Shown in pieces: positions 2,396 to 21,950 of a stretch of 64,000 nucleotides of DNA. The stretch comes from Candidatus Zixiibacteriota bacterium. Its GTDB lineage: Bacteria; Zixibacteria; MSB-5A5; GN15; FEB-12. The first letter of the stretch is position 1, and each line of letters starts with the position of its first letter. Under the pieces are notes generated by a model. The model ran no database searches, was not told where the DNA came from, and worked only from the letters and a program-made list of their open reading frames with translations. The stretch lies in contig JAHOYZ010000028.1 of assembly GCA_019038695.1 (NCBI GenBank), forward strand, positions 12,492 to 76,491, in the 5' to 3' direction. Position numbers and translations under genes: made by a program.

Positions 2396-2489
2396 TTGAT
2401 TCAGGATATGAAGATAAATATTAAGGATGTCCGCTTGACCTTTGTTAAGCCCTCAACTTGAGGATTAGGAGGATACTCTGATGAGGAAA

Positions 2490-2518
2490 GCGGTGTTGGT
2501 TATACGAATTTCGCAACT
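2490..2518 (+). repeat. att-like repeat, L family
   Basis: GCGGTGTTGGTTATACGAATTTCGCAACT; family also at 3624, 13355, 17481, 17556. Confidence 0.8.
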
Positions 2519-2706
2519 ATCTGCAGTGGGAGGACACCAGGAACCTTCTTGAATCCTACACCGGGTTCTGCTGAGTGCCGGTCGCAACTGGGTGATGGAG
2601 AACGCGGCCCAAAGGACATTGCCAGAGCACAAACCGTGGCTTAGATTGCAACACCACTTGTCCGAATTGTCTAAAGACGTACTCGCCGGACCAAACCTGA
2701 CATTCT

Positions 2707-3420
2707 TCAATCCTTCACACAGCGCACTGACTTTCCCGCATACGGCCAACTTCCACCTCGAAGGATCTCAGCTGATCTATAACTCAAACTGGTATTGAGC
2801 ACTGTAGTAGCATTCAGGTAGGATGATGTCCAGAAATATGCCTCCTCTTCCATTCTATCAAAGTGGCCGGCGGGCATACGCTGGCCGCCGGGAAGGGCAG
2901 TAAATCCGTACTCATCTGAGGCTCCCGTGTTTGGACTGCGCCAATGGTTTGTCCCACGTTGTTTCAATTTACCACCGGCCGTGTAGTAGTCACCGACAAA
3001 ACCGATAAGAGTCTGCCATTCACTGTCGGACGCCACATGCCAACCTGCAGGAGCAATTTTGCGGCTATCAACTACCGCATACGAGTTATATATCCTTCCG
3101 TATGTGTCGATGATTGTATCACTGTTATTGTAGGAGCAGCAGGCACCGACTCTGGTTTCAAACCAGCCCGTATTGTCGGTGATTACGTTGATCTCATCGC
3201 CGTTGCGATAATGAGTCACGCGCAGGTTTTCAGCCATCCACCACTGGTTGCCAATCTTCACCGTGGCATAGACATTTCCATCAAGATCAGTGACACTCCC
3301 GGTTTCGATTGTGTTTTCATCACCTGAGTTAGCAGGATTGTCATCGCCACATCCCAAAGCGCAGAGAACCAGGCCGAGTGCTATCAGGATTGTGAAAAGA
3401 AAGAACCATGAAGATTTCAT
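2707..3420 (-). CDS. FISUMP (Fibrobacter succinogenes major paralogous domain) lipoprotein
   Basis: Lipobox ALGC; DLDGNVYATVKIGNQWWMAENL, PAGWHVASDSEW, SVRCVKD. Confidence 0.9.
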   Translation of the reverse strand: MKSSWFFLFTILIALGLVLCALGCGDDNPANSGDENTIETGSVTDLDGNVYATVKIGNQWWMAENLRVTHYRNGDEINVITDNTGWFETRVGACCSYNNSDTIIDTYGRIYNSYAVVDSRKIAPAGWHVASDSEWQTLIGFVGDYYTAGGKLKQRGTNHWRSPNTGASDEYGFTALPGGQRMPAGHFDRMEEEAYFWTSSYLNATTVLNTSLSYRSAEILRGGSWPYAGKSVRCVKD

Positions 3421-3623
3421 GACTCACCTCACGGTTTACCTAAGGTATTCATGTCAACATTAACATAGGCAGCATAGATCATACTGTCAATGTCGATTAG
3501 AATCGGCGAGATGCCGTCTGCTGCGAGGGAGATAGAAGAAATTTTGTCGTATATGACGGAAGTACTGCCTATCGACTGTCGTGGCGGGAGCGTAAGGCAT
3601 TGTTGTATTACGGCTTAATGAAA

Positions 3624-3652
3624 GCGGGGGTGGTTATGCGAAGCCCGTAATT
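3624..3652 (+). repeat. att-like repeat, L family (degenerate)
   Basis: GCGGGGGTGGTTATGCGAAGCCCGTAATT, ungapped alignment to the L consensus. Confidence 0.65.
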
Positions 3653-3839
3653 TTTATAGTGGGAAGCGACCAAACCAAAGGTGTTAATTCAAACAATATT
3701 ATAATAATGTGAGGGTTACTTACGATATTTGAGTTGCGAATGTAACCATTGGTCAATTGAAGACTGATGCAATAACGATGTCGGTACCGCCCTCGCTGTT
3801 GACGTTGCCGCAAATATAAAAGGGCACTTGAACGGATGA

Positions 3840-4892
3840 TTATGCCAACCCGCGGCTTTCGAGGCGTATCTTTTCCCAGGTTGGAAAATCTTTAGGCGGG
3901 TGGACTATCTCACTCTCCGGTTTTAGTTTCAATTCGATCGCTTCCTCTGGGCATTCTGTCACGCACAATCCGCATCCGATACATTGTTCACGTATGATAA
4001 CCGAAACATCATCCTCCGTTTCAATCGCGTTCACCTGGCATCTATCATGACAGGTCTGACAATCGCTGCAATTATCGGAGTCAACAACAGCGTAGTAGTT
4101 GGCATAGGCAACCGATTTACTTATGCCCCATTCTGTGATCCCCCGCAAAACGGCGCAACAGCATCCGCAACAATTGCAAATATACCCGATACCGTCAGTG
4201 ACGTTGCTAACGCAGTGCACCAGTCCGACTTCTTCAGCCTCATCAAGAAGCGCCAAAGCTTCTTCCTGCGATATAGAATCGAATCCCGGCGTTCCGCTCT
4301 GTAGATTGAACACCAGACAATTCCTGACAGGAAAATCACATTTTTGTCCCAGATGCGCTTTTTGAACCCGGCAAATACAATCATGATTGGCAAACGACTT
4401 CGCTTTCATAAGGATTTTCTTGACGTCATCGTATGGAAGCACCCAATCTCCCGTGACCGCACCCCGCACCGGAATCACGCGATGAAGCGCCGGATCATAC
4501 TTCATAATTCCTGCCGCTCCGCCGTCCGCGAGGTAATCATCAACCAACTGAGCCAGTTCCTTGTCCATGCTAAATACTTGTGCTTCATAAATCCCTACAA
4601 CGAACGGAGCCAATCGGAACTTCACATCGTCGGAGCTTCTATCAAGCCACACCAACCCTTTCTGAGCCATTTCTTTTAACGCGGCCGCCACCTCGTCGAC
4701 AGGAAGTCCGGCTCTATGCGCAATAGCTTTGGTCGGTTCCATTGTCCCGGTTAAACACCCCACCAGCTTTGCTTCTTCCTCCGAAAATATCTTCTGCAGC
4801 AATGTAATTTCAACATTGGAAGGAGTCCGCGGAAATCCGTTTGGTAATCTATCCAAAGCCTGCGCCAGTTTTTCATAAATTTCAGTATTCAT
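3840..4892 (-). CDS. 4Fe-4S dicluster protein with N-terminal wHTH-like region
   Basis: CSDCQTCHDRC and CIGCGLCVTECP ferredoxin motifs plus ICNCCGCCC; start taken at MNTEIY. Confidence 0.8.
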   Translation of the reverse strand: MNTEIYEKLAQALDRLPNGFPRTPSNVEITLLQKIFSEEEAKLVGCLTGTMEPTKAIAHRAGLPVDEVAAALKEMAQKGLVWLDRSSDDVKFRLAPFVVGIYEAQVFSMDKELAQLVDDYLADGGAAGIMKYDPALHRVIPVRGAVTGDWVLPYDDVKKILMKAKSFANHDCICRVQKAHLGQKCDFPVRNCLVFNLQSGTPGFDSISQEEALALLDEAEEVGLVHCVSNVTDGIGYICNCCGCCCAVLRGITEWGISKSVAYANYYAVVDSDNCSDCQTCHDRCQVNAIETEDDVSVIIREQCIGCGLCVTECPEEAIELKLKPESEIVHPPKDFPTWEKIRLESRGLA

Positions 4893-5089
4893 CCTTTTCC
4901 TGTCCTTCTGTATTAGTTCCCACTCATTCGTTCCCACCGGAACCTGCAATTAATGATTGATGCTATAAATAAGGGGAAGTATACCGATTGAATCAAGAAT
5001 AAATGTAATTAACGGGGGTCCTATGTCTAATGACACTCTTGTGTGGCGAGGATCCGTAAGTTATTGTGTATCAAAATAAGTAACCCCAA

Positions 5090-5108
5090 TATCACTCTCA
5101 GAAAACTT
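5090..5108 (+). repeat. T-family arm; perfect 17-bp inverted repeat with 6442-6458
   Basis: TCACTCTCAGAAAACTT (5092-5108) vs AAGTTTTCTGAGAGTGA (6442-6458). Confidence 0.75.
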
Positions 5109-5621
5109 TGGTGGAATTCGATTTCGAGGTGAGATACGGCTATTTCATTTTAATCGGAACGAGATGGAAAACAATTAAATAGAGGATTAGAACCCCATAT
5201 TCGCGTGGCAGCACAAGGAATTACACAATATTTTGACCATATTGTGACCGTTTTCCGGGGTGTATTTCAGCAGTAGCATCTTCTCGGTCACGACATGGTC
5301 TTCAGCCTGGAACCTATAGAATTGACGCATATCGAAACAGCTTTACCGGAGGAGTTAGTACCATATCAAACAACAGTATGCGCACCTGCCGGCTCTACCC
5401 AGTCGACAAGGGTTGAAGGGATTGGGATAGTCCTGAGTCATAACTGTCCTTTGAATCGTCGCAGGGATGAGGATGTTACTTTGTCCCAGTATAGCGGCAG
5501 CAAGCCACTGTCGTTACCCTGATTTACAAATGTAATTCCAAGGATTTATTGACACTGTCATTCCGGTATGCAGAATTGCCACACAAAACCGATGAATAAT
5601 AGTACATTAGAAGGCAAGAAT

Positions 5622-6281
5622 ATGATTAGAAGATTAGCTTTTTTTGTGGCACTGCTGGTGCCCTCTGTTGCAACTACAACCGAACGTATGATTGGCCTTG
5701 TCGAGGTCGCTGCTTTCCACGAGATCTCGGGTAAAGATGGACAGGACATACCCAGAGGGCCGGTTGTTTTATATGTAGAGCCAAATATTGACGCGAAGAT
5801 TGCGGTTGTCGTTCGAGACCATAAGCACTTGGAGTCCCGCGAACACAGCTACGAACAGGTGTCCGCTGTGGTTTACGATCGAACCAGAAATTCGGGTGGA
5901 GACTTCTGGTACAAGCTCCGGTACTTTGACGGGGAGAAGGAGATCTTTGGGTGGCTAAGCCAAACCGACGCCGGCAAGTTCCGAAGCTACCCTGATATCG
6001 TAGTACGCGATTTGACTTATTTGTCTGCCGATTGGGACAAACGGCTTTTCGAGCGCCCCGACACATCTGCTCCATTCAGACAATTTGAGGAATTGGGAGA
6101 ATATCCAGACGTGCGCGTGGCCGATGTTAAGTATGTTAACGAGGATGTCTGGTTTCTTGTCGTAGTAGTTGATGGTAATATCTGCACTGGCGGAGGAACT
6201 AACATCATTGCAACAGGCTGGGTATTAGCTTACGCAGAGAACGGCTCAGCTACAGTTTGGTACTACTCGCGCGGTTGTTGA
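5622..6281 (+). CDS. Hypothetical secreted protein
   Basis: Open 219-aa frame with signal-like MIRRLAFFVALLVPSVA; start uncertain. Confidence 0.6.
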   Translation: MIRRLAFFVALLVPSVATTTERMIGLVEVAAFHEISGKDGQDIPRGPVVLYVEPNIDAKIAVVVRDHKHLESREHSYEQVSAVVYDRTRNSGGDFWYKLRYFDGEKEIFGWLSQTDAGKFRSYPDIVVRDLTYLSADWDKRLFERPDTSAPFRQFEELGEYPDVRVADVKYVNEDVWFLVVVVDGNICTGGGTNIIATGWVLAYAENGSATVWYYSRGC

Positions 6282-6441
6282 AATCGTAAAATATACATTG
6301 TTAAAACGAGTAGTAATAATTGAGGATTTCTTACCCTGATCATACTATCCTCATTGTATATTTAGGTTTTAATCATTTGCAGGGCTTTTCGCCGCCTACC
6401 CCACGCATGAATATAAGATAACTGGAACGCAAATGCTGGAT

Positions 6442-6461
6442 AAGTTTTCTGAGAGTGAGGT
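6442..6461 (-). repeat. Inverted T-family arm
   Basis: Reverse complement ACCTCACTCTCAGAAAACTT; first 17 nt identical to 13890-13906. Confidence 0.75.
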
Positions 6462-6509
6462 TTGTTGGCTGACAGATGCTATAAGCTAATGAATAAAACG
6501 GTACAAAAA

Positions 6510-6541
6510 GCGGGGCATACGAAACGCGTTCATCAACTGGG
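6510..6541 (+). repeat. att-like repeat, R family
   Basis: GCGGGGCATACGAAACGCGTTCATCAACTGGG, aligns to the 9510 copy. Confidence 0.7.
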
Positions 6542-6719
6542 TAATTGAAAACATCGAAGCGTGAGACATCACACTCCTGCCATTTAACTTCTTCTTTCGC
6601 TATACCCACTTCAAGGTACCGGACCGTAGAAGAAGTGGACAGAAACTATTTGATGATGTATGATACATTGAAAGTTTTAATATCTTGTTTTGATGTCCAG
6701 TAGATTCATATAACGAGAA

Positions 6720-7376
6720 TTGTTACCCGTGAAGATAAAAGCTGTATTTTTTGATTTGGATGGAACAATAATTAGGAACACCGATTCTGTTAGATATCTC
6801 TGTATACAAAATGATAGATTAAGTGAATTTGAAAAAATAGAATGCCTTGAAGACGATAACAATATTCCGTGGATTGAGGCCGATTATCTTAAGGCAGAAC
6901 TAATCAAAGGCCTCAGTTTCAGAGATGCAGATGACAAATTCGATGACAATATAGAACTTATTCAGAATCTGGAAATGGTTTTGACATATTTGAAAGAAAA
7001 GGGAGTGAAATCGGTACTAATAACAGCAGGGCCAATTCAAGTTGCCAATATCCTCGGGACTAAATTTGATTTCGATGGTATTTATGGCAGTCAGTATGAA
7101 TTAAAAGACCAGAAATTTACCGGAAAGATCTTATCTCACCTGGGAAGTAAAGGAAAGGTAAATGGTCTTAATGATTTTTGTGCAAATAACAGTATTTGCT
7201 TGAACCAGTGTGTTGCAATTGGAGATAGCGAATCAGATATTGATATCTTTAAAAAATGTAGTAAGTCAATCGCCATAAACTATTCCGACGCATTGAAGGG
7301 AAAGGCATCTGATTATATTATCACCGATGATCTTTCGGACATTATTGATATTATTGAATCCTGGCTCGCCGAATAA
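6720..7376 (+). CDS. HAD-superfamily phosphatase (phosphoserine phosphatase-like, IB)
   Basis: FDLDGT motif I, ITAG motif II, GDSESD motif IV; AT-rich. Confidence 0.88.
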   Translation: MLPVKIKAVFFDLDGTIIRNTDSVRYLCIQNDRLSEFEKIECLEDDNNIPWIEADYLKAELIKGLSFRDADDKFDDNIELIQNLEMVLTYLKEKGVKSVLITAGPIQVANILGTKFDFDGIYGSQYELKDQKFTGKILSHLGSKGKVNGLNDFCANNSICLNQCVAIGDSESDIDIFKKCSKSIAINYSDALKGKASDYIITDDLSDIIDIIESWLAE

Positions 7377-7486
7377 GTAATGTCGAACTGATAATGTGGC
7401 TTCAGTATCATGGCGAGGTTGCTGGGATGCATATCGAAACTTTCTGGTAAGTAAGACAGGAGCATCTGGCTCCCGTCATATACTTG

Positions 7487-7981
7487 TTAGAAAGACCAGT
7501 TGACTATAGGAAAGACTGGAAACTGACCTCCCTGCTTGATGATATTCACCAATCCGATCTGCAAACCTTTCATGCTCAAGGCATAGTTGACAAGCCCAAG
7601 TTGAAATCCACTGGCGTGGCCAGCGTAGTTCACAACACCCCACTGGAACCCTTCGAAATTACCTTTGGTAATGTTCACCGCAGTGCTCTGCCAGCCCGTG
7701 AAGTCGGCGTCAACAAGACCGACAAACCCGAACTGCACACCCTTGGACATGCCCGAAGTAGAATGGCTGACAAGCCCCCAATCCAAGCCCGTGACATACT
7801 TATTCCGTCCGTACAGCAAACTGAGTCGAACACCTGATATTGGATTCTCTTCAGGAACGAGTTGAATCGGAGAAAACAACGAAAGCTGGATCGGCTTCTC
7901 CTGAGCCAGTACCGGCTGGGCAACAAGAATGAGAGTGAGGATCGCAACCCCGAATAGACTACAGTTTTTCTTAGACAACAT
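7487..7981 (-). CDS. Secreted protein with LA_2272-like GxQxGLVN repeats
   Basis: Signal peptide; repeated GFQWGVVNY/GFQLGLVNY/GLQIGLVN; terminal Phe. Confidence 0.7.
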   Translation of the reverse strand: MLSKKNCSLFGVAILTLILVAQPVLAQEKPIQLSLFSPIQLVPEENPISGVRLSLLYGRNKYVTGLDWGLVSHSTSGMSKGVQFGFVGLVDADFTGWQSTAVNITKGNFEGFQWGVVNYAGHASGFQLGLVNYALSMKGLQIGLVNIIKQGGQFPVFPIVNWSF

Positions 7982-8151
7982 ATCCTCCTATCTGTTGATT
8001 CCCACAATTACTAGGAACTCTAGTGATAAATATACGAAATCCCGTATCCATATTCAAGCTAAAGCAGATTCCACAAGATTGTGCAGCGGTTCAGCCTAAT
8101 CAGGACACGGTTGACTTGAAGTTAAGCCGTGTCTTGCTAAACAAGTAGAGT

Positions 8152-8244
8152 AGTTCTTGACAATGAACAGTCAACTGTTTGTTAATGTGTTGTATTGTAG
8201 GCTATTACGATAGATGCAGGGTTAACCGTTCAATACCCAGAATT
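8152..8244. repeat. Composite attP-like junction: inverted P arm, 25-bp palindrome, tRNA core, direct P arm
   Basis: AGTTCTTGACAATGAACAGTCAAC (8152-8175); TAAT-N17-ATTA (8183-8207); GCAGGGTTAACCGTTCAATACCCAGAATT (8216-8244). Confidence 0.7.
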
Positions 8245-8403
8245 TTTCATCTGAGTTTTCAGATCGATTAGGAATATTGGGAAAAGCGGTGTTGAGGTCA
8301 CAATCGACAGTATTTTTTGGATGCGATTTTGGCTCCAATAGCCCCGAGTCACATAAACTTTGGCAATGACGTTATTGGTTAGTAGTGGTGTTTTTTACTG
8401 AAA

Positions 8404-9486
8404 TCAGAATCGCTTCTGGTAGAAATGGCAGTAGGGCATTTTGCCGGTGTCTTCATAATAATCCTGATGGTATTCCTCGGCCGGCCAGAACTCTCCTGCA
8501 GGTACCACCTCGGTAACCACATCGAACCCCTTCTCCTTCAAAATCGTGATAAGCTCCAGAGTCACCTTTTCTTGTTCATCACTGGTTACCAGGACCGCCG
8601 ACCGATACTGCGGTCCAACATCTAGCCCCTGGCAATTGCTCTGAGTCGGGTCGTGGATTTCAAAAAAGAACCGTGCCAGAGTCTCAAAGGATGTCACCGA
8701 TGGGTCAAAGGTTATTTCGACAGTCTCCGTATGACCTGTCTGGCCTGCGCAGACTTCGCGGTAGCTCGGGTTCTCCGCCACTCCACCCATGTATCCGACC
8801 TCAGTTTCCAGTACCCCTTCCTGCTGGCGCAGCAGATGTTCGATTCCCCAGAAGCAGCCGCCAGCAAAATAAGCCTTCTCCACTCCTCTGGACGTTTCTA
8901 CGGGAACGAAGACGAGTGAGATGGAATTGACGCAGTGCCTGGTATTTTTAGGAGTGAAACCTTCGCGCAGAAAGACGTGACCCAGGTTTCCTTCACAGCT
9001 GACGCAGACAATCTCTGTTCGGTTGCCGTCGGTATCAGGCTGGTGCTTCACTGCTCCGGGTATTTCATCGTCGAAACTCGGCCAACCACAGCCTAATGAG
9101 AACTTGTCCTCCGATCGGTACAAAGGTGCATTGCACTGCTGGCAGATATATGTACCGATCTGTTTGTGATCATTGTACTTGCCACTGAACGACACTTCTG
9201 TACCCTTATGAACAATGACTCGCTCTTCTTCCAGAGTCAGCTTGTTGTATGTCATAATCTTCTCCTTGCTACCTGCTATATCTTCCGATTCTGCGATTGC
9301 ATAAGTCAGTAGCGTCATCAGAATCATGAGAATTGCGCCGGAGGTAAATTTTACTCGTCGCCTTATGCTCTTCAAATCATCCATCATGTGATAAAACGGT
9401 CTCGGGATACGATTTGTGCCCGGTTTCATCAACCCTTCCCGAGCCACCGGTATTGACATTACGAAACGAAGGCTTTGTAGGTACAA
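8404..9486 (-). CDS. msrAB: Bifunctional methionine sulfoxide reductase MsrB-MsrA, probably exported
   Basis: MsrB GCGWPSF and RHCVNS; MsrA FAGGCFWG and AEEYHQDY; hydrophobic N-terminal stretch; true start probably downstream of 9486. Confidence 0.93.
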   Translation of the reverse strand: MYLQSLRFVMSIPVAREGLMKPGTNRIPRPFYHMMDDLKSIRRRVKFTSGAILMILMTLLTYAIAESEDIAGSKEKIMTYNKLTLEEERVIVHKGTEVSFSGKYNDHKQIGTYICQQCNAPLYRSEDKFSLGCGWPSFDDEIPGAVKHQPDTDGNRTEIVCVSCEGNLGHVFLREGFTPKNTRHCVNSISLVFVPVETSRGVEKAYFAGGCFWGIEHLLRQQEGVLETEVGYMGGVAENPSYREVCAGQTGHTETVEITFDPSVTSFETLARFFFEIHDPTQSNCQGLDVGPQYRSAVLVTSDEQEKVTLELITILKEKGFDVVTEVVPAGEFWPAEEYHQDYYEDTGKMPYCHFYQKRF

Positions 9487-9509
9487 CTCAGGGTGAGCTA
9501 ACGAGAATG

Positions 9510-9545
9510 GCGGGGTGGACGAGACACGTTCCGCAACTGGGTGAT
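9510..9545 (+). repeat. att-like repeat, R family (longest tRNA-Asp homology)
   Basis: GCGGGGTGGACGAGACACG vs tRNA reverse complement GCGGGGTTGACGAGACTCG (17/19), followed by TTCCGCAACTGGGTGAT. Confidence 0.85.
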
Positions 9546-9584
9546 AGAGAATTCGGCAGCGTGATTATGGAGGAAGCAACGTCT

Positions 9585-9926
9585 CTACATTTCAGTAATC
9601 GCTTCCTTGGCCTCGTCCATGCTGTCATAGCAGTCGAATACTTGAATCAAGCGCGTTAATACCAGCAACTCTCGGACACTGTCAATTCTGGCTAAAGCTA
9701 CATGTCCGCCAGCCCTCTTCACTGAGGTATAACACCCTATCAACATACCGAGACCCTGTGAGTTGGTCCATTCGACATCACCCATATCTATTACAAACTT
9801 CCTTGTATTAGATTTGAGGTGGTCGTGGAGTCGGTTTCGACACATCACAGTGTCCTTACCGCCCATAATCTTCCCGGAGATACTGATGACAACAACATCG
9901 CCTTCCAATACATCCTTGAATTCCAT
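9585..9926 (-). CDS. STAS-domain anti-sigma factor antagonist
   Basis: VIDMGDVEWTNSQGLGML phospho-Ser motif; GGAG RBS. Confidence 0.88.
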   Translation of the reverse strand: MEFKDVLEGDVVVISISGKIMGGKDTVMCRNRLHDHLKSNTRKFVIDMGDVEWTNSQGLGMLIGCYTSVKRAGGHVALARIDSVRELLVLTRLIQVFDCYDSMDEAKEAITEM

Positions 9927-9997
9927 ATAGGGCTCCTTTCACATCAAGTGCGACATCTACCGCCCTTTGGTCCGCCACTTATTATCACTCTCCGCTC

Positions 9998-10359
9998 CTA
10001 TGGACACTCAGCTGGTGGTGCACCTCCGCCAAATAGATAAGCGACCAAAGCCGTTAGATCGGCGATATTAATCGTCTCTCCCGCATCACCGTTAACATTA
10101 GCTTCGGGAAGGCACTCTGGAGTTGCACCACCTCCGAAGAGGTATGCTACGAGCGCTGTAAGGTCAGCTATGTTAACAGCATCCTCTTGATCATAGTTGA
10201 CATTGCCGCGAATCGATGGGATGCAGCAACTTGGGGGAAGATTCATGAGTGCCATCAGAGCCCCCCCACCGCTGCCCATGAGGATGTCAACCGTACCATT
10301 CCCATCAAGATCGCCGACAGACTGAGACATATCAACAGGGCTGTAACATTACGTCGCAT
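9998..10359 (-). pseudogene. Split or truncated secreted FG-GAP/dockerin gene
   Basis: AGGAGG at 10365-10370, ATG at 10359, giving a 34-aa signal-like ORF (stop at 10255). The overlapping -1 frame encodes VGDLDGNGTVDIL plus a dockerin (GNVNYDQEDAVNIADLTALVAYLF x2). Confidence 0.6.
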
Positions 10360-10490
10360 CGTGGCCTCCTGCGGTGAGTATGTAATCTTCCCTACGATGC
10401 AGATCGACGGTGTGGTTATTTAAATATAGCGAGAATAGACCAAAAAGTCAATGCGGAAGTGTACAGAACATAGACTAATAAAGTCTATAA

Positions 10491-10520
10491 GCGGGCCCAA
10501 TATCACTCTCCCCAAACTTT
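10491..10520 (+). repeat. att-like repeat, T family
   Basis: GCGGGCCCAATATCACTCTCCCCAAACTTT. Confidence 0.7.
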
Positions 10521-10687
10521 TGTAGAATTCGAATTTTTTAATCCAATTCACATATTCAACCGCATCTGGAACACGTTGGCACATATTACGCTTACAGTAA
10601 GAAAGGAAGACCATTTATCCACTCCCGCTACCAGATTCCAACTTGGAAAAAGCTAGGCTTCTTGTTTATTCCGCATCCAGATACTAG

Positions 10688-12430
10688 TTGCGAGTGACCA
10701 CCCGGCTGTATATACTGTTATTCATGTCTGGAAGGGTCCTTAAGAACATCGAAACTGCAATCAGATGGTTGACCGTAACCACCACAGTATTTTTCCTGAT
10801 TGAGGAACTCGTAAGAGTTGTATGGTATGTGATAGGCGAATGGGGGATTTTTCAAGCAATAATTGATGGTGCTGTCCTTTATAAAATGGGCGAGACAGTC
10901 ATACTGATACCATTTTTCTTGCATATACATTGGAACGGCGTTTGGACTGCAGAGAGACTACGTGATTTTGTTAGAAAGACGCGATGGTTGATTTGGTTTG
11001 GGGGAATTTTAGCGCTGGTTGCATCATTTGACCTGTTCAACAGGGTTGACTGGTCATTGTGGACCATTCCGTTGATGGTAATAGCCCTGACTCTGCCCCC
11101 TGTCATGGGCTTTCTCACCAAAAGAAGGGCGGTGTGGAAAGGACGAATACTAGCAATGGCTATAGTTTTTCTAGTTTTTTGTCACTATGCCGTCAGTTTT
11201 ATTTTCACCGGTTATTTTATAACCCCTCTACCATCTTCTCATCCATCCCCAGCTAGCACCGCTCAAGGTCGATGGCAGCAAGATCTGGAGTATATGGCTG
11301 ATAACCTGCCCCGGCTTCATCTAAACGCGTTTCATACCGTTCAGAAGGAACAATTTGAGGGGGAGGTTACCAGTTTGTACGATGCCATCCCTAGTTTGGA
11401 CGAACATCAGATCATGGTTGGTTTTTACCGCATTACTGCTATGATTGGAGATGGTCACACGGCGATTACATCGTGGAGTGGTCCTGCAGCGGTCAAGTTC
11501 CCCATACGCTTGTACTGGCTGAGCGATGGACTATTTGTTATAGCGGCTACCGAAGAATACCGTAACATACTTGGTGGGAAGGTTTTGAGACTAGAAAATC
11601 TAACCGTCGATTCGGCTTTCAACGTTGTGAGCACCCTATTGCCATATGAGAGTGATGGATACTTGCTTCACAAGAGTGTGCGGTATCTTATCGACGTTGA
11701 TTTCCTCAAGGGGTTGGGCATCGCAAATGAAAATGGTCAGATGGCTCTCGTTGTTGAAAACAGAGATGGAGATACGATCTATACAAACCTTGAATCGGTA
11801 GCACAGGTAGGTCATCAAGAGTTGATCCGACTACCGGAAACTTTCCCTTCTTACATGTCACATTCTAGGGGCGAGTATTGGTCTGAATATTTTGATGACT
11901 ACAAGACAGCCTATCTAAAGTATAATTCTTTCACTAATCCGGTAGAGTTTCCGAAGTTCACGGAAGAATTCTGGGCGATGGTTGAAAATAAATCGGTCGA
12001 ATATGTCATTATAGATTTTAGAGAAAACAGCGGAGGATATTCCTCGTGCTTTGATAGCTTTTTTGAAAACATTCTATTGCACGACAACATCAACCAGAGA
12101 GGCCACTTGTATCATTTGACGAACCGGCGCACTTACTCTTCCGCATCGCTGTATACTGGAATTATTCGGCGTGATACAGAAGCCATTCTGGCTGGAGAAG
12201 AGATGGGCGGTGGTCTGAACCGATATGGAGACATGCGCACGTTCAAGCTACCGAATTCTGGTGTCAAAGTGAGCTATAGTACGAAGTACTTCGAACTCTG
12301 GCCTAACACACTCCCGCCTTTCGAGATGGATCTTTTGTTAAGTCTCTCATCCAAAGAATATTTCACAGGACAAGATCCAGTTCTAGATTCCGTGCTTCAG
12401 CTTATCAGGTTGAATATCGGCATAGATTAA
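10688..12430 (+). CDS. Membrane-anchored S41-family peptidase-like protein
   Basis: About 5 N-terminal TM segments; AMIGDGHT, IIDFRENSGG and TYSSAS are S41-type motifs. Confidence 0.75.
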   Translation: MRVTTRLYILLFMSGRVLKNIETAIRWLTVTTTVFFLIEELVRVVWYVIGEWGIFQAIIDGAVLYKMGETVILIPFFLHIHWNGVWTAERLRDFVRKTRWLIWFGGILALVASFDLFNRVDWSLWTIPLMVIALTLPPVMGFLTKRRAVWKGRILAMAIVFLVFCHYAVSFIFTGYFITPLPSSHPSPASTAQGRWQQDLEYMADNLPRLHLNAFHTVQKEQFEGEVTSLYDAIPSLDEHQIMVGFYRITAMIGDGHTAITSWSGPAAVKFPIRLYWLSDGLFVIAATEEYRNILGGKVLRLENLTVDSAFNVVSTLLPYESDGYLLHKSVRYLIDVDFLKGLGIANENGQMALVVENRDGDTIYTNLESVAQVGHQELIRLPETFPSYMSHSRGEYWSEYFDDYKTAYLKYNSFTNPVEFPKFTEEFWAMVENKSVEYVIIDFRENSGGYSSCFDSFFENILLHDNINQRGHLYHLTNRRTYSSASLYTGIIRRDTEAILAGEEMGGGLNRYGDMRTFKLPNSGVKVSYSTKYFELWPNTLPPFEMDLLLSLSSKEYFTGQDPVLDSVLQLIRLNIGID

Positions 12431-12457
12431 GGATCAGAGGGGTTATTGAAAAGAAAG

Positions 12458-12482
12458 AGCCCACGCATTAACGTGGGCTTTA
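12458..12482 (+). terminator. Intrinsic terminator after the S41 gene
   Basis: AGCCCACG-6-CGTGGGCT followed by TT. Confidence 0.6.
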
Positions 12483-12492
12483 TTGGTCTATG

Positions 12493-12520
12493 TCGGGCTG
12501 CTACTGACAGACTTGGAACT
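12493..12520 (+). repeat. att-like repeat, Q family
   Basis: TCGGGCTGCTACTGACAGACTTGGAACT; TACTGACAGACTTGGAAC identical at 18171. Confidence 0.75.
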
Positions 12521-12924
12521 TGTTTGGCTTCTCCAACACCGTGTGTAACCCCGGACTTGATGATACGTGTCAGGGCCTATCTATGTGATTGCCTGTGAAG
12601 GGTCTATATCAGTTCCGGTTCCAACTTCCCTCGCATCCGGCGTCTGCATGATCCGGCCCTTGAATCCAATCAAACGCAGCTGAATATAATCATACTGAGA
12701 AACAGGCTACCTCGCCTGTTCCCCGGCAGGGGGACATATTTATTAGTTGGAACTATAATGATAGTGGATTTGTTTAATCCATGATATGAAGAGTGGCCCG
12801 GATAGAGACACAGATATTTGCTTGCTGGCGGAGCCTTGCGACTATCCGGAACATTCCTGTAAAGAAATCGCAGAAATAACAGACGGCGGTTGCTTTCCAA
12901 GTGACCAACTAAGGAGAAATTGAT

Positions 12925-13296
12925 TTGAAGCTACGCAAAGAAGAATTACCAGTTGCCCTGGAGTTGCCTGTCGCGACATTTCGTGTCGCTGAATGGGATG
13001 ATATGGCGGTAGCGTATGTCGAACTGGCGGCGGGTGCCGACGCCACACCGCTGCTTGAAGGACTTCATGAGGACAAGTGTCAGTGTCCACATTGGGGGTA
13101 TATGCTCAAAGGGGCCATTCACGTTCGTTACGGCAATGGCGAAGTGGAGGTATGTCGAGCAGGTGAGATGTTTCATTGGCCGGCCGGGCATACAGTTTGG
13201 GTGGAGGAGGACACGTCCTTCGTCGAATTCAGTCCAAGGAAAGAACTCAAGGAGTTGTACGACCATATAGGTAAGAAACTGGCGTCCGCTTCCTGA
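12925..13296 (+). CDS. Cupin-domain protein
   Basis: CQCPHWGYMLKG and WPAGHT motifs; AAGGAG RBS, TTG start. Confidence 0.85.
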   Translation: MKLRKEELPVALELPVATFRVAEWDDMAVAYVELAAGADATPLLEGLHEDKCQCPHWGYMLKGAIHVRYGNGEVEVCRAGEMFHWPAGHTVWVEEDTSFVEFSPRKELKELYDHIGKKLASAS

Positions 13297-13316
13297 GAGA
13301 TTTGGCCTGGTAGGAA

Positions 13317-13341
13317 AAGCCCCCTGCAAACGAGGGGGCTT
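13317..13341 (+). terminator. Intrinsic terminator after the cupin gene
   Basis: AAGCCCCC-9-GGGGGCTT. Confidence 0.6.
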
Positions 13342-13354
13342 CTTCATATCTATG

Positions 13355-13383
13355 GCGGGTTTGGTTATACGAATTTCGCAACT
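13355..13383 (+). repeat. att-like repeat, L family
   Basis: GCGGGTTTGGTTATACGAATTTCGCAACT. Confidence 0.8.
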
Positions 13384-13519
13384 TCTTGATGTATGAGATA
13401 GGCAATTCTTATTTGGAATTGTAGAGATTATAATACTGTGCTACTAGAGTGGACTTACATCTCTTGCTGCTATTAGGACTTCTTAGATCGAAGATCTACT
13501 AAGTAAACCGAACAACAGC

Positions 13520-13807
13520 TCAGCGATCAATAATATACCTTTTTACTATAATCTCAATTATCTTATGAAGGATCATTACGACAATCACTCCGAAAACAAT
13601 GAGTATTAAATGTGCCAATACTGGAACTCCTTGTTCTGTATCTATAAAACCATCAAGGAATTCATAACCTCTTATCGGAATTGTTAAGATGTAGGCTATT
13701 ACAAATAGTATGGAAGCGATAAGTCTACGTTGTCTCCAATAATACCAATCTTTCCATCGCATAGCGTAATATAAGAAAAAAAACTCACCGTTCAATTGAT
13801 ATTGCAA
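13520..13807 (-). CDS. Hypothetical small membrane protein
   Basis: Two hydrophobic segments, AT-rich; start uncertain. Confidence 0.5.
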   Translation of the reverse strand: MQYQLNGEFFFLYYAMRWKDWYYWRQRRLIASILFVIAYILTIPIRGYEFLDGFIDTEQGVPVLAHLILIVFGVIVVMILHKIIEIIVKRYIIDR

Positions 13808-13880
13808 TCAAAATAACCTTGAGGGTTTATGAGATGTGCTCGAACCGGTATCTCATTGTAATACAGGGGGATGAGAAAAA

Positions 13881-13910
13881 GCGGGGTGGACCTCACTCTC
13901 AGAAAATTTT
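13881..13910 (+). repeat. att-like repeat, T family
   Basis: GCGGGGTGGACCTCACTCTCAGAAAATTTT; inverted partner at 17409-17423. Confidence 0.8.
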
Positions 13911-14021
13911 GTGGTGTTCCGTTTTTCTATTCGGTTACACTATGCCACGACCAGTGGAAGACGTTGGAAGTCAATAAAATGCGACAAGTAAGGTATGGCA
14001 AAAAGAAGATCGTCCTTGCTG

Positions 14022-15008
14022 TTATTTCTCGTCAAAGGTGATGACCACTTTTCCTCGTGCGTGTCCTTTTTCAACATATCGGATCGCCTCAGGAGTTTCA
14101 CTCAAAGAGTACTTCCTATCTACTACAGGCGCTATTTTGCCGGCCTCCAAAAGCTCCTTTATGAAGACCAAATCTGCCTGATTCACGTTCGCCATGAATG
14201 AAATAACTTTTCTATCCTTCATCCTTGCAATAAGAGGATTGAAAATCAGCGATTGTAGAATACTCGAAGTTGATGAAGAGCCGCCAACTCCGACATATAT
14301 GCCGGTAGCTTTTAGCACGCGCAGAGGCTTTCGTATTGAATGAAATGCGGCATTGTCTAAGATCAGATCATACACCTTCCCGCTCAACCAGAAGTCTTCT
14401 TTAGTATAATCTATCACGTGATCTGCGCCAATCGACCGAACCATCTCGAAGTTTTTTCCGCTACACACTCCGGTTACTTGCGCTCCTAGCATCTTAGCTA
14501 TCTGTATCGCAAATGTCCCCACTCCACCGGATGCGCCGTTGATCAAGACATGTTGTCCTGATTGCAGTCGTCCGTGATCACGAAGAGCCTGCAACGCTGT
14601 AATGCCGGCGACCGGCACAGTTGCCGCCTGCTCAAGAGTCATGGCTGTCGGCTTCAGCACCAATTTGTCCTCGCGAACACACGCATATTCTGCAAATCCA
14701 CCCATGCTCGAGCCAAAGACTTCGTCACCAACCTTAAACTGAATTACATCCTTACCAACAGCTTCAACCCGGCCAGCCATGTCGGCACCGAGTATCTGGT
14801 GTTTCGGTTTCAGAAGTCCAAAGCCCATTAGTCGAACCAGAAAAGGCTCGCCACGTAGAATGTGCCAGTCAAGCGGGTTCACCGACGCCGCATGTATCTT
14901 TACCAAAGCTTGATTGTCTGTTGGCGCGGGCTTGTCGACTTCTTTCAGTTCCAAGATATCGGGCGATCCATATCTTGTGCGTACGATAGCTTTCATATTA
15001 AACCCCAA
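14022..15008 (-). CDS. NAD(P)-dependent MDR-family oxidoreductase (zinc-independent, quinone reductase-like)
   Basis: SVNPLD, NGASGGVGTFAIQ, GHARGKVVI. Confidence 0.92.
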   Translation of the reverse strand: MGFNMKAIVRTRYGSPDILELKEVDKPAPTDNQALVKIHAASVNPLDWHILRGEPFLVRLMGFGLLKPKHQILGADMAGRVEAVGKDVIQFKVGDEVFGSSMGGFAEYACVREDKLVLKPTAMTLEQAATVPVAGITALQALRDHGRLQSGQHVLINGASGGVGTFAIQIAKMLGAQVTGVCSGKNFEMVRSIGADHVIDYTKEDFWLSGKVYDLILDNAAFHSIRKPLRVLKATGIYVGVGGSSSTSSILQSLIFNPLIARMKDRKVISFMANVNQADLVFIKELLEAGKIAPVVDRKYSLSETPEAIRYVEKGHARGKVVITFDEK

Positions 15009-15024
15009 TGTTTAATACACGATA

Positions 15025-15642
15025 TTAGCGGTTCGTTGTTTTCCTTCTCCTAAATTCATCTTTCGATATTGTCCTTGTTAGGTGATAATATAGGAATAAT
15101 TTTTTTACGATAAATATTATCCCAGTTCTAACATATAGATAAAGTACAACTCCTATTAAAGCTAATATAGTACCCACTCCTGTGGGAAGAACTGCACCAA
15201 TTGTAAATGTCATACCAATGACAAATCCTAAGAAACATTCTGCTCGATAAATTGGATAGAACAGAGCCAATAGAAAAAGTCCATACATCATATAGCCTGA
15301 AAGATTTGAATAACCAAGAGTGAAAAATACAGAAAGTAGTATTCCGAATGATAAAGCAAAGAGAAACCCGTAAGTATATTTTATTGGAAAATTTAATAGG
15401 TTTGACTTATTATCATTATTACGAATTAGTCGTTTTTGTATGCGATAAGTTAAAGACAATGTAAGTAAAGGAAGTAAGAGACCACTCCACCAATTAGAAA
15501 TTTTAGGCAAATCCCCCCGTTGTAATATATGGTGGCTTGGTACACCACCATGGTAGTGATCCCATATCAATAGTGACCATATGCCAACTGTTACTATTCC
15601 TGTAAAATATAGACTTCTTTTATAAAACGTTTTTTCGGTCAT
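15025..15642 (-). CDS. Hypothetical multi-pass membrane protein
   Basis: About 5 TM segments; HGGVPSHHIL motif; very AT-rich. Confidence 0.7.
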   Translation of the reverse strand: MTEKTFYKRSLYFTGIVTVGIWSLLIWDHYHGGVPSHHILQRGDLPKISNWWSGLLLPLLTLSLTYRIQKRLIRNNDNKSNLLNFPIKYTYGFLFALSFGILLSVFFTLGYSNLSGYMMYGLFLLALFYPIYRAECFLGFVIGMTFTIGAVLPTGVGTILALIGVVLYLYVRTGIIFIVKKLFLYYHLTRTISKDEFRRRKTTNR

Positions 15643-15720
15643 AATGATTTGATTTTAAGCGGCTTGTTATTTTTTCTTTTCTTGTTGTCTACTGTCAATA
15701 GGCGAAACTGTCTATTGTCA

Positions 15721-16431
15721 TTATTGTCTTTCAATTGCTGATATATTGTTTTTTACACCTTTAATTAAGAGCCATAGGGTTATTGAAATTTCTCCTAGAA
15801 TCAAGAAAGGCATTGCGAATTGTGTAACAATAGTTTGGTAATCAGGAAAAAGTAAAGATACGAATGAATGTATGATGTAAGCTATACCATTAAGAATTAG
15901 AAAAACCCCAATTAAACGAGGGATGAATCCCGATTTATAAGCCAAATAACCAAATGGCAAAAGCCAAAGTCCCCAGAACATTTCTAATGTCAAACTCCCG
16001 TAATTATTAATTTTTAGAAAAAGCATTGCCAAATCTTGTCTTTGACTAAGTTCAAATGTTTTCAATACTTCGCCTTTAAAAATCATAAGGGAAGCAATAC
16101 TAAATCCGTCCATAATAAAAATCACAGGAATTGTCACAGAAAACAATGCTACTATAAGTAAAGCTTGATGTTTATTCACTTGTTCGAACAATTTATAAAG
16201 AGCGAATAATAAAAAGATACAAATAGTAACACTAAGAAGATCATTTATTATACCTGTTCGAAACATAAACTCATTACTTAGTAATTTATTGGCTGTGGCA
16301 ACTGCATTGCCCGCAACAATAGTTTGTGAAGGAACATATATCATCCCATATATGCCAGTTATTACCCAAATAAGATATAGTCCGCCAGCAAGTCTTGCGG
16401 TCTTTTTTAGAGTGAACACTTTATTTTCCAT
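15721..16431 (-). CDS. DUF4386 family membrane protein
   Basis: ARLAGGLYL, FWGLWLLPFGYL, GEISITLWLLIKG. Confidence 0.85.
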   Translation of the reverse strand: MENKVFTLKKTARLAGGLYLIWVITGIYGMIYVPSQTIVAGNAVATANKLLSNEFMFRTGIINDLLSVTICIFLLFALYKLFEQVNKHQALLIVALFSVTIPVIFIMDGFSIASLMIFKGEVLKTFELSQRQDLAMLFLKINNYGSLTLEMFWGLWLLPFGYLAYKSGFIPRLIGVFLILNGIAYIIHSFVSLLFPDYQTIVTQFAMPFLILGEISITLWLLIKGVKNNISAIERQ

Positions 16432-16461
16432 ATATCTATTTTTATTAGATTTTTGTAATTT

Positions 16462-17178
16462 CTATTGATTTACCGGATTTGGCTGAGCTTTTAATCCCTT
16501 AATCAGAAGCCAAAAACCTAATGTTAGTTCGAAAATAGTTAAAGGCACATCGAACAAACCTATGTGAACTATCTCTCCATAGCCAGGGAAAATGAGGTAA
16601 GCAAAAGCACAGAACACACACCATGCCGATGATGTGATGCCAAAAATAGCTAATGTCTTTGGTATATACTTTGATTTGAGCAATAGGTAGCTGCAAACCG
16701 TAGCAGCTAATCCCCAGAACGGCAGGCCAACATAGTATGCGTCCCAACTATTGTTAAGAAGTAACCTCGATAGGGCTTGTAATTGATCTGTCTCAAAGAC
16801 TTTCAGGAAACCGGCATCACCCAGAAGGCGCAACGCACCAAATGTATTGATAGCCATAATGGCCCACATAGAAGCATATACGAACCTGGTTAATGCTGCT
16901 GTCAGAGCAAAATTCTTGTTAACCGGCTTGAGTATCACATAAAGCGATGTTGACATTAAGATCAGGGTTGCAAGGTAGATTAGATTACAAATAATGTTGA
17001 AACGAAACAATGTTTCATGTGCCAACATGTTCCGGGCAGTTTCTGCAACATCCGAAACGATAAACCGAAAGCCGACGCTGTAATTTGAAATAACTACAAT
17101 TGCGATCGCGAATATTAAAGTGAATCCAGCGATTCGTGCGGCCTTGTGTTGTGACTCATTGGGTGCGATGTTTGTCAA
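16462..17178 (-). CDS. DUF4386 family membrane protein (paralog)
   Basis: AARIAGF, LLLKSKYIPK, FELTLGFWLLIKG. Confidence 0.85.
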   Translation of the reverse strand: MTNIAPNESQHKAARIAGFTLIFAIAIVVISNYSVGFRFIVSDVAETARNMLAHETLFRFNIICNLIYLATLILMSTSLYVILKPVNKNFALTAALTRFVYASMWAIMAINTFGALRLLGDAGFLKVFETDQLQALSRLLLNNSWDAYYVGLPFWGLAATVCSYLLLKSKYIPKTLAIFGITSSAWCVFCAFAYLIFPGYGEIVHIGLFDVPLTIFELTLGFWLLIKGLKAQPNPVNQ

Positions 17179-17480
17179 ATCAATTCGTCCTTTCCGGAAG
17201 GATTAGAGTATTTCCATGCATACTAATCCTGTATTCTTTCACAGATCTAAATCATTATTCTAAGGAATACGAAGTTCCCACCCCAGATGTTTCACGGAGA
17301 AGCACGGCCAGTCTTTGGAACTACAGCATCGAAGTATCGCCTGAATTCGCGTGCTAAATTTTTCCGACGTCTCGATACACCAGTAGCAAAGAGGAAAGAT
17401 TGGTAAAGAGTTTTGTGAGAGTGCTGTTAGCGATTCGGAGCGGCCGCTAACTCATCGGAATCCTAATAGATATAATAAAA

Positions 17481-17584
17481 ACGGGGTTTGTTAGATGATC
17501 TTCGCAACTTTTGTTTTACGAGAGAATTGAATTAGCCCTTTAGACTATTGAAAAAGCGGGGTTGGTTGTACGAATTTCGCAACT
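17481..17584 (+). repeat. Doublet of L-family att-like repeats, 75 bp apart
   Basis: ACGGGGTTTGTTAGATGATCTTCGCAACT (17481) and GCGGGGTTGGTTGTACGAATTTCGCAACT (17556). Confidence 0.8.
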
Positions 17585-17726
17585 TTTTGCTGCATGACAA
17601 TTACATGATGGGGAGGGTGGAATGTGTAGAAGTAGGGAGAGGTTGAGATGGATGTTGTCTACGAAGACACTTGTTGAATATTTCTCTCTTTGGCTGGTAG
17701 TTAGTTTAGACTGGAGGATGAAATAG

Positions 17727-17984
17727 ATGAATGCTTATAAAATCGAAATCGGGGAAGCTGTTCGAGTACGCAAGATGTTCTTTTACGAAACTCAAATTGC
17801 TTATGCCGGGATGCCGAGTGCGGATATATATTCATTGGTAATTGTAAATACCGAAGCTCATAATTCCTGGTCGTTTAATCTCTATGTACCTGTTAGAAAA
17901 AAAGAGATTAAGATAAGCAAGGGGACAATCCGGGTGGTTAGGGTTGATGAGAATTCGGTTGAGTTTGAGTTCTTGAAGAATTGA
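17727..17984 (+). CDS. Hypothetical protein
   Basis: 85-aa ORF between att-like repeats; GGAGG upstream. Confidence 0.45.
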   Translation: MNAYKIEIGEAVRVRKMFFYETQIAYAGMPSADIYSLVIVNTEAHNSWSFNLYVPVRKKEIKISKGTIRVVRVDENSVEFEFLKN

Positions 17985-18099
17985 TGGAGCGGATTGGTCT
18001 GAAACGACACTGTCAAATATGCAAAGTGATAAGGAGTGTCAATGATTAGACTCGAACTGAAAAGGAGTGTATGTGAATGTAGAACAACGACTTATATAA

Positions 18100-18188
18100 G
18101 CGGGGTTGACTGTTCAATACCCAGAACTTTTCGGATGAGGTTCCGGCTGGCCTAGGACAAAGCGGGCCGTTACTGACAGACTTGGAAC
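18100..18188 (+). repeat. P-family plus Q-family att-like repeats, 62 bp apart
   Basis: GCGGGGTTGACTGTTCAATACCCAGAACT (18100) and GCGGGCCGTTACTGACAGACTTGGAAC (18162). Confidence 0.82.
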
Positions 18189-18582
18189 ATATCTACTTAC
18201 CAATCCAAACCCGAAGGTCATGGAAGTGCTTGAACCAGTGGGACGGTTGTCTGCTTGGCGTGTGACGAACTGAGCGAAGCTGGTTTGCGGGTCAGCTGCT
18301 ATCACTGGTTAAGTACACTGGTTCCTATTGATGCTTCTATTCCCGGTCATAATTTCTCGACTATGGAGCAGAGTCCATATTGGCCGCGGCAAAACATCCA
18401 GGCCGTCTTTGAGACTATTTGCTTGCTCGTAAATGCCACACTATAGATAATGCGGTGGTTGATTGATATGAAACTATGGAAGTGACTGCCTTTGAAGCCA
18501 AACCAGATATGTTGGACGGTCACGAAACAGCTCTACTAAATTTCGATGCCAGACTTAATCCTAAGATGAAGGGAGGAGAAAG

Positions 18583-19086: not shown

Positions 19087-19311
19087 TTTTCAGACATAAC
19101 ACAAGCATATCACGAATGTGACCGCGCACAGACTGTGCAGCGATATATCGTTCAGAGTTTGTTCTGGAAGTTCGAATTGGCACATAGCTGAAGTATTGCA
19201 GTATTCAGTTCTAAGAGCAGCTACTAACAGGTTTTGCACGATTCTGCAATCCGGGAAGGCAACCGAAATCAGGCAGAAGATTAGCTGCATTGAAGCCTCG
19301 AGTGCCTAGAC

Positions 19312-21876: not shown

Positions 21877-21950
21877 GTTATGGGTATATCCACTTATCGA
21901 CAATCTCTTGCCGATCCTTTGCCATCGCGCCTCGGGGTCACCCAAAATAC

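Follow-up and report, generated by a model that had tools for sequence, protein, structure and literature searches.

The segment at 8140-8249 of the window, which is the whole analysed stretch of 64,000 nucleotides from the genome of an uncultivated bacterium of the FCB group, is probably an internal joint between modules that were integrated site-specifically and accreted as an array downstream of a tRNA-Asp gene, the array having been built by large serine recombinases (LSRs). Several observations carry this reading: a long repeat that links the joint to the tRNA gene, an array of co-oriented sites between the two, the conservation of these sites in relatives despite cargo turnover, LSR genes of relatives that end within the tRNA core, and a 50-bp palindrome that one class of site forms with the last codons of such a gene. 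The best match of the TldD protein of this bacterium (68%) is to metagenome-assembled genomes (MAGs) of Ignavibacteria and Zixibacteria.

The repeat itself is unambiguous. Without a gap, 8148-8226 aligns with 21734-21812 at 57 of 79 identical positions (72%), and when the tRNA core is excluded the agreement between the two blocks is 45 of 64 nt. Sliding each copy of the 79-nt block along both strands of the window gives a chance level of 19.8 identities (sd 3.9) and a next-best match of 39 of 79; the observed identity is far above this background, and base composition therefore does not account for the repeat. An earlier note on this DNA had proposed that the block next to the tRNA-Asp gene is duplicated at the 8216 junction, and its reservation that the alignment might be no better than chance can be set aside. 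Similarity extends leftward to about 8140 and 21726 and no further, and comparison of the genes to the left of the two copies, which encode a 164-aa signal-peptide protein and a 445-aa dockerin protein, revealed no homology. The shared architecture that the earlier note described is present in all its listed details, except that the spacer it gave as five or six nucleotides has six in both copies: AGTTCT-N6-TGAACAGT occupies 8152-8171 and 21738-21757, TAAT-N17-ATTA follows at 8185-8209 and 21771-21795, the distance from AGTT to the start of the core is exactly 64 nt in each, and TGTATTGTAG and ATTACGATAGATGC are common to both blocks. The core reads GCAGGGTTAAC at 8216 and GCGGGGTTGAC at 21802, the latter being the 3′ end of the minus-strand tRNA-Asp(GTC), and a direct copy of the arm, CGTTCAATACCCAGAATT, follows 3′ of the 8216 core at 8227-8244. 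This arm is rare: its 18-nt form, TGTTCAATACCCAGAACT, has four matches in the window at up to three mismatches where 0.04 are expected, and across the genome it is found at this locus and in a single copy on contig C13, and nowhere else. An independent Logan contig (SRR14477496) is 100% identical to window positions 4378-10800, so the junction is neither an assembly chimera nor a binning artefact of the MAG; this contig was the sole match when other assemblies were checked for alternative arrangements, and the dockerin gene is not on record.

Read from left to right on the plus strand, the joint consists of three parts. The first is the distal copy of what we call the X arm (8140..8215), which is the right-end arm of the module on its left, contains most of the ungapped match to 21734-21812, and translates in the recombinase frame as *FLTMNSQLFVNVLYCRLLR*MQG*. 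It is followed by the degenerate core GCAGGGTTAAC (8216..8226), in which 9 of 11 nt are those of the tRNA-Asp 3′ end and which is the presumed crossover region, and then by a B-type left-end arm, CGTTCAATACCCAGAATTTTTCA (8227..8249; called P-type in the earlier note), which belongs to the module on the right. Some 70 nt beyond the first core is a second core-like site, AAAAGCGGTGTTGAGGTCACAATCG... (8282..8325, plus strand), and the pairing of a B site with a second site is kept on C13. The tRNA-proximal copy of the X arm (21726..21801, plus strand) belongs to the module next to tRNA-Asp, of which it is the right-end arm, and it translates as EFCVLNSWRSANELYCSRLR*MRG*. The anchor of the array is the tRNA-Asp(GTC) gene (21802..21876, minus strand), whose last 11 nt (21802-21812, GCGGGGTTGAC on the plus strand) are the core that is copied through the array, together with its conserved neighbour tRNA-Val(TAC) (21951..22024, minus strand); the array is confined to the 3′ side of tRNA-Asp. 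A search of positions 1-24000 with Rfam returned these two tRNAs and no other RNA, and the idea that the arms are tRNA-like or another known RNA was rejected on that result. Two further B-type sites, both on the plus strand, have perfect cores: one at 18096..18132 (GCGGGGTTGACTGTTCAATACCCAGAACTTTT; core at 18100) in which the arm is perfect as well, and one at 19359..19395 (core at 19363) with a single arm mismatch, which is the left end of this type nearest to the tRNA. The 8216 site, with two core and two arm mismatches, is the most degenerate of the three B-type left ends. The X arm has a T-type counterpart in the long right end of a T-type module (6442..6509, plus strand), which is made up of an inverted T arm and a spacer and translates as KFSESEVCWLTDAIS*.

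The first letters of the array motif, (A)AAGCGGGGTTG..., are the tRNA-Asp 3′ end in reverse complement. Counting the tRNA's own end, the motif is present at least 16 times at 2490-21802, always on the plus strand. Arm classes were defined by the 20-35 nt 3′ of the core. Besides the B type (TGTTCAATACCCAGAACTTTT; 8216, 18100 and 19363), these are the A type (GGTTGTACGAATTTCGCAACTTTT; 2490, 3624, 13355, 17481 and 17556), the T type (ATCACTCTCnnnAAACTTTTG; 5080, 10491 and 13881) and the D type, in which a longer T-arm-like fragment of the tRNA is followed by CAACTGGGTGAT (6510, 9510 and 20071), all on the plus strand; one core-like site at 19427, also on the plus strand, is unclassified. The co-oriented sites outside the B type span 2486..20110 and stand between mostly single, unrelated genes, the cargo comprising Fib_succ_major, Fer4 (ferredoxin-domain), HAD, MsrBA, STAS, dockerin, S41 peptidase, ADH, DUF4386 (twice) and DUF2059 proteins, ORFans and others. 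Sites lie 5′ of some genes and 3′ of others, and the neighbouring genes may be on either strand. Certain arms have inverted partners, namely the perfect 17-bp pair 5092/6442, the T-type pair 13894/17409 and the B-type pair 8227 and 21738. Across the genome the sites are confined to the tRNA-Asp and tRNA-Asn loci; enrichment of the position weight matrix on contig C12 is circular, because the matrix was trained there, and the independent hits are those on C13 and in relatives only. The ORFan cargo of 5568-6281 was sought in 160 genomes and no homologue was found. Two stretches, 12431-12945 (515 nt) and 19087-20227 (1141 nt), contain no ORF of at least 80 aa in the gene list used. A repeat family, CTACTGACAGACTTGGAAC, has copies at 18163 and, within these ORF-poor stretches, at 12494, 19214 and 19308; the stretches may be eroded modules, or the repeats a fifth arm class.

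Thus far the locus has two features of an accretion array, namely an intact tRNA 3′ end accompanied by partial copies in the same orientation, and a variable region beside a conserved flank. A third feature, a recombinase gene or its recognizable remnants inside the array, is not seen here. No recombinase was found among the array ORFs scanned, a lenient tblastn search of the 20-kb array for LSR or integrase pseudogenes returned nothing credible, and matches to PF00589 or to LSRs are absent from the array, which holds only tail-like remnants of about 25 codons. The genome has five PF00589 matches, all on other contigs and all XerC/XerD-like or phage-type. The candidate integrase that the earlier note looked to is encoded neither in the array nor on this contig.

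The arrangement of the joint can be understood if a circular module recombines with the terminal ~11 nt of the tRNA gene (core GCGGGGTTGAC) and in doing so restores the tRNA 3′ end. With each integration the older end, plus everything behind it, would be displaced further from the tRNA. Since older ends would be displaced outward in this way, an internal joint would consist of the older module's right arm, the core, and the newer module's left arm, in that order, and an attP site has its parts in the same order. At 8216, X is a copy, since diverged, of the arm next to the tRNA today, and the left arm is one of three B-type copies. The proposal of an attP-like joint between two modules therefore survives as far as the anatomy of right arm, core and left arm is concerned, but the interval 8216-21802, put forward as a possibly excisable unit of 13.6 kb, is not a single P-type element: it is a composite of about ten modules with at least 11 further co-oriented sites inside it. 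In this lineage the builders would be LSRs, with genes located at the right end of autonomous elements and terminating inside the core. Given that the array is without a recombinase, its modules would be either fossils or movable only with a recombinase supplied in trans, and some capacity for movement may remain.

Comparison with relatives shows that the sites persist where the cargo does not. The tRNA-Asp/tRNA-Val pair is kept by many relatives, and the tRNA-Asp 3′ regions of 12 of them have no gene in common with the window array. Two genomes of the same genus share with window positions 2400-22000 the tRNAs, an 81-nt stretch of a dockerin gene, and stretches of 39-106 nt at A, B, T and D sites. 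The latter lie on or beside the sites with 76-95% identity (A, 91-95%; B, 92-93%; T, 76-86%; D, 86%), and none of the cargo genes of this interval is shared with either genome. Conservation of sites despite complete turnover of cargo is the signature of a recombination-site family, which decaying scars alone would not leave. Related elements that share the left end seen at 8216, as the earlier note's proposal presupposes, are found not only within the genus but also in other families of the order and in metagenomes. Specifically, B-type sites with unrelated left flanks are present in other families of the order and on eight further metagenome contigs, and the B arm comes after GCGGGGTTG in four genomes (G001, G024, G145 and G149) and on eight metagenome contigs; the B-type site is absent from the viral contigs searched. 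The T type is more widespread, its exact 16-mer TCACTCTCCCCAAACT being found in 57 of 160 genomes and 43 of 79 genera of the order (reversed control, 0). Copies of this 16-mer on one contig always have one orientation and are 1-7 kb apart, and in G043 seven T-type sites lead up to the tRNA-Asp/tRNA-Val pair, with no recombinase.

Large co-oriented T-type arrays, with up to 18 exact 16-mers per genome, were also noted at loci L134 (G043:C25), L135, L136, L137 (G135) and L138 (G149). None of these contigs has a recombinase, and the array on G043:C25 ends at tRNA-Asp/tRNA-Val. The right end of a typical unit in a T-type array runs from an intrinsic-terminator hairpin through caaAGTCTATG to the core.

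Repetition of the right arm at two successive junctions is likewise recurrent. It is seen in G014 (155 nt, 97%), around a single-gene 1.1-kb unit beside tRNA-Asp, in G043 (117 nt, 99%), and on C13 of this genome at tRNA-Asn (100 nt of the tRNA-Asn flank, 88%, the copies being 2.8 kb apart). These repeats fit tandem units with homologous right ends, as the earlier note proposed, and they would also be expected from Campbell-type insertion of a circle carrying X, core and arm.

The nature of the recombinase is suggested by relatives in which two LSR families, LSR1 and LSR2, abut tRNA-Asp; their domains are Resolvase, Recombinase and Zn_ribbon. The C-terminus is ...KWRG* in the LSR1 of G019 and ...EFAESDKKRG* in the LSR2 of G021, and in both genes the stop codon is a TGA within the tRNA-Asp core GCGGGGTTGA, which means that the element's own recombinase gene provides the new 3′ end of the tRNA. 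Tail remnants of LSR1 abut cores in G001 (of the same genus), G024 and G021, and on metagenome contig L121 a remnant of LSR2 abuts a B-type arm; intact LSR genes thus stand beside att sites in G019 and G021, remnants do so in G001, G024 and L121, and no LSR gene lies in the window. The intact LSR1 element of G019 is bounded on the opposite side, at a distance of 25 kb, by an A-type site, and a small unit in G024 has a B-type arm as its left end and an LSR1 tail remnant as its right end. A suppressor-like tRNA beside the G024 remnant was considered and rejected, as ARAGORN makes no call there.

Canonical attP sites of LSRs are about 50 bp long and symmetric, being imperfect inverted repeats around a short crossover that resemble attB little outside the core, and each half-site is about 25 bp. 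In G021 the last codons of LSR2, AGTTTGCTGAGAGTGA, repeat the T-type arm TCACTCTCnnCAAACT in inverted orientation, and the codons and the arm together make a 50-bp imperfect palindrome centred on GCG|GGG. The T type therefore has the anatomy of an LSR attP. At the B-type joint of 8216 the identity of the 11-nt core fits this anatomy; its inverted arm, though, does not adjoin the core, from which it is 44 nt away and beyond an LSR half-site of ~25 bp, and it is absent from the LSR1 tails of relatives. Because the 20-kb array has no recombinase gene, nor any pseudogene that tblastn could detect, the link between the 8216 joint and LSRs is drawn from these relatives. The B-type arm would be a putative LSR half-site.

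The X arm is most simply understood in the same context. Many T-type units have a long right end, in which an inverted arm and 45-60 nt precede the next core, and when translated in the reading frame that the core dictates they yield a conserved peptide (EFAESEVGRFLKSITDCELRGYKKRG and KFAASEVCRFTEPITDCQLMGQKKR in G149; KFSESEVCWLTDAIS* at 6442 in the window). This conserved peptide marks the long right ends as fossil 3′ ends of a longer-tailed LSR2 subfamily. The two X arms, EFCVLNSWRSANELYCSRLR*MRG* and *FLTMNSQLFVNVLYCRLLR*MQG*, have the same layout and length as the long T-type tails, with the order EF...C...RG* that is found in the conserved ones. When the register is fixed by the core, X agrees with the 3′ ends of relatives' LSR1 genes in 24-30 of 64 positions, a value that ranks first or close to first when 536 other offsets are tried. 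On the strength of tail layout and register we read X as a decayed recombinase tail; stop codons interrupt its frame, and at the protein level it resembles LSR tails only weakly. Thus, X is probably what is left of the last ~25 codons of an LSR gene, and the inverted P arm and the TAAT-N17-ATTA motif, treated as separate elements in the earlier note, would represent the EFxxLNS codons and the codons that come after them in this decayed tail. It should be added that each X arm, at 8152-8175 and at 21738-21761, contains GTTGAC plus the B arm in inverted form, matched at 19 of 24 positions, and that a mere coding remnant does not explain this match. An intact LSR with an inverted B arm in its tail (GAGTTCTGGGTATTGAACAGT, EFWVLNS-type) was not found in the order; three extra pattern hits there were chance matches within unrelated coding regions.

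It is informative to consider the joint in light of readings that do not involve an accretion array. The simplest of these takes 8216-21802 as a single 13.6-kb island with imperfect direct repeats of ~87 bp, the product of one integration at tRNA-Asp whose integrase has since been lost. It accounts well for the fact that the two longest and most similar repeats of the region bracket exactly this interval, one of them including the tRNA 3′ end, and G029, where a 50-nt tRNA-Asp repeat is accompanied by a tyrosine integrase, supplies a classical precedent. However, at least 11 more core-like sites of several (four or more) arm classes lie inside the interval, and sites 18100 and 19363 also form attL/attR-like pairs with 21802 that are better preserved (no core mismatches, 0-1 in the arms) than the bracketing repeats, which are just 72% identical where internal B-type sites are near-perfect. 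Likewise, single genes with nothing in common make up the cargo and integrase remnants are absent, all of which makes a single island unlikely. The inverted arms that bracket cargo (8227 and 21738; the perfect 17 bp of 5092/6442; 13894/17409) would be expected if the modules were MITE-like non-autonomous units with terminal inverted repeats and a transposase elsewhere, the tRNA-like core being merely a preferred target. Yet only some units have such arms, most, including the G014 unit and the majority in G043, being without an inverted partner, and the array shows neither target-site duplications nor a transposase, of the DDE class or otherwise. Furthermore, the inverted T arms encode the conserved recombinase tail and in G021 are part of an intact LSR gene, and we regard the transposon reading as very unlikely.

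A different view of the arms is that they are shared promoters (TTGACT-N17..., AACTTTTG) or terminators and that the 79-nt repeat is an old local duplication. Indeed, TTGAC and a T-rich AACTTTT block occur at a fixed distance in the arms, and many right ends in relatives have intrinsic-terminator hairpins. This reading was nonetheless rejected because the orientation of the sites is independent of that of the genes, the sites having one orientation whatever the position or strand of the adjacent gene; that the tRNA 3′ end is copied in them and that they are confined genome-wide to the tRNA-Asp and tRNA-Asn loci adds to making it highly improbable. The resemblance to chromosomal integrons is more striking in outline, in that both have mostly single, often ORFan genes between co-oriented sites, and sites that are shared within the genus while the cargo differs; the inverted arms that flank the 8216 core could even suggest folded sites of the attC type, used by an integron integrase to insert cassettes beside the tRNA. 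Here, however, there is no IntI (integrase_gron scores reach at most 148 bits, with the cut-off at 265, and the proteins concerned are XerC/XerD-like or phage-type), no attI/Pc and no RYYYAAC/GTTRRRY boxes. Single-stranded folds of five junctions are no better than those of shuffled sequences (z from −0.74 to +0.93), the cassette genes are in both orientations, and the sites copy the 3′ end of a tRNA. That this is an integron in the strict sense is therefore extremely improbable.

The nearest known analogues of the array are the composite islands of staphylococcal cassette chromosomes (SCC) with ccr-less cassettes, and tycheposon islands. In SCC, LSRs integrate circular cassettes at the 3′ terminus of a single conserved gene, and modules that lack a recombinase need one supplied in trans. 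Successive insertions of SCC and SCCmec at rlmH (orfX) have given rise to tandem arrays with short direct repeats, in which ccr-less pseudo-SCC are included (10.1101/336396; PMC3900703). The array shares with these the tandem arrangement at the 3′ end of a conserved gene, the direct repeats, and the presence of modules without a recombinase. In contrast, the target here is a tRNA gene and not rlmH, the phylum is another, the modules are much smaller (often one gene, ~1-3 kb), several arm classes are interleaved, the stop codon of the relatives' recombinases lies inside the target core, and recombination is deduced from sequence comparison. In addition, the LSRs reach 111 bits against CcrB, for which the cut-off is 900, so that the comparison with SCC is a mechanistic analogy only.

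Tycheposons of Prochlorococcus use LSRs in 27 of 937 cases, and repeated integration at one tRNA drives older elements inward and leaves partial tRNAs and degenerate remnants (10.1101/2020.12.28.424599). A hypervariable island that is anchored at a tRNA and strewn with remnants is what we see here as well. Tycheposons, though, mostly have tyrosine recombinases, they bring replication modules with them, and fragments of their integrases stay behind, whereas here no recombinase fragment exceeds about 25 codons and the left-end arms fall into discrete classes that are conserved across genera. Accretion of CIMEs and ICEs in Streptococcus places att-bounded segments without a recombinase beside a resident integration site, the internal junctions being hybrid att sites. 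Recombinase-less segments bounded by att sites and hybrid internal joints are thus common to both systems, but CIMEs and ICEs use tyrosine integrases and usually involve one or two elements, and here there are ~15 sites and serine recombinases are implicated.

These comparisons invite a bolder speculation, which we consider possible but doubtful: that FCB-group bacteria of this order operate an integron-like gene-capture platform based on LSRs, for which the 3′ ends of tRNA-Asp and tRNA-Asn serve as docks. Small cassettes, often with a single gene, would have only a recombinase-tail-plus-arm site of ~50-100 bp and would be inserted and shuffled in trans, and joints such as 8140-8249 would be live equivalents of attP. 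If the arrays are active, they would constitute a second, mechanistically independent route to integron-style accumulation of cassettes, one that employs serine and not tyrosine chemistry, double-stranded sites of ~50 bp in place of folded attC sites, and a tRNA as the dock. They belong to a poorly known, uncultivated lineage, in which a single arm class already reaches 57 of the 160 genomes of the order. One can also imagine a use in the discovery of recombinase tools, given that the locus offers natural LSR/att pairs aimed at a universally conserved tRNA 3′ end, with partner sites that can be read from genomes. If they are only fossils, the arrays would still be a clear record of how mobile DNA accretes and erodes at a tRNA hotspot.

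The same genome holds two other islands at tRNA genes. A second, smaller array lies behind tRNA-Asn at C13:20074-23111 (L001:12074-15111); it contains a B-type site and a second site that are near-identical to window 8216-8310, an A-type-like site, and, 263 nt from tRNA-Asn, a 24-nt fragment of the tRNA-Asp 3′ end. At tRNA-Arg(CCT) there is a 17-kb island, C27:875-17921 (L100:8473-9980), both ends of which are marked by the 15-nt direct repeat TACCCCCGGCAGGAC. Its 490-aa LSR ORF overlaps the 3′ end of the tRNA by 40 nt, and just upstream are a weak tyrosine-recombinase-like ORF and then, further upstream, four large ORFs; two of these upstream ORFs were scanned (252 and 603 aa), and neither has a Pfam hit. 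This LSR is the only intact one in the genome; it is a paralog 42% identical to the G019 enzyme and has its best score with CcrB, below the cut-off. That the sole LSR here is directed at tRNA-Arg weighs against the LSR reading of the tRNA-Asp array, whereas the island has the same design as the tRNA-Asp LSR elements of relatives.

Among relatives, G029 has a classical tRNA-Asp island (L096, G029:C18), with a 294-aa tyrosine integrase beside the tRNA and, at a distance of 13 kb, a 50-nt repeat of the tRNA 3′ end; at least two classes of recombinase in the order hence use this hotspot. Several contigs (G016:C9, G004:C25, G009:C308, G003:C218 and G002:C202) break off at tRNA-Asp or no more than a few hundred bases from it, and such contig ends in many MAGs suggest that the DNA there is strain-variable or repeated. 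Lastly, in the first 200 nt of AAGA01009455.1 (L118) an A-, a D- and a B-type site follow one another within ~150 nt, with no cargo between them, and this run of sites looks as if entire modules were lost by site-to-site deletion.
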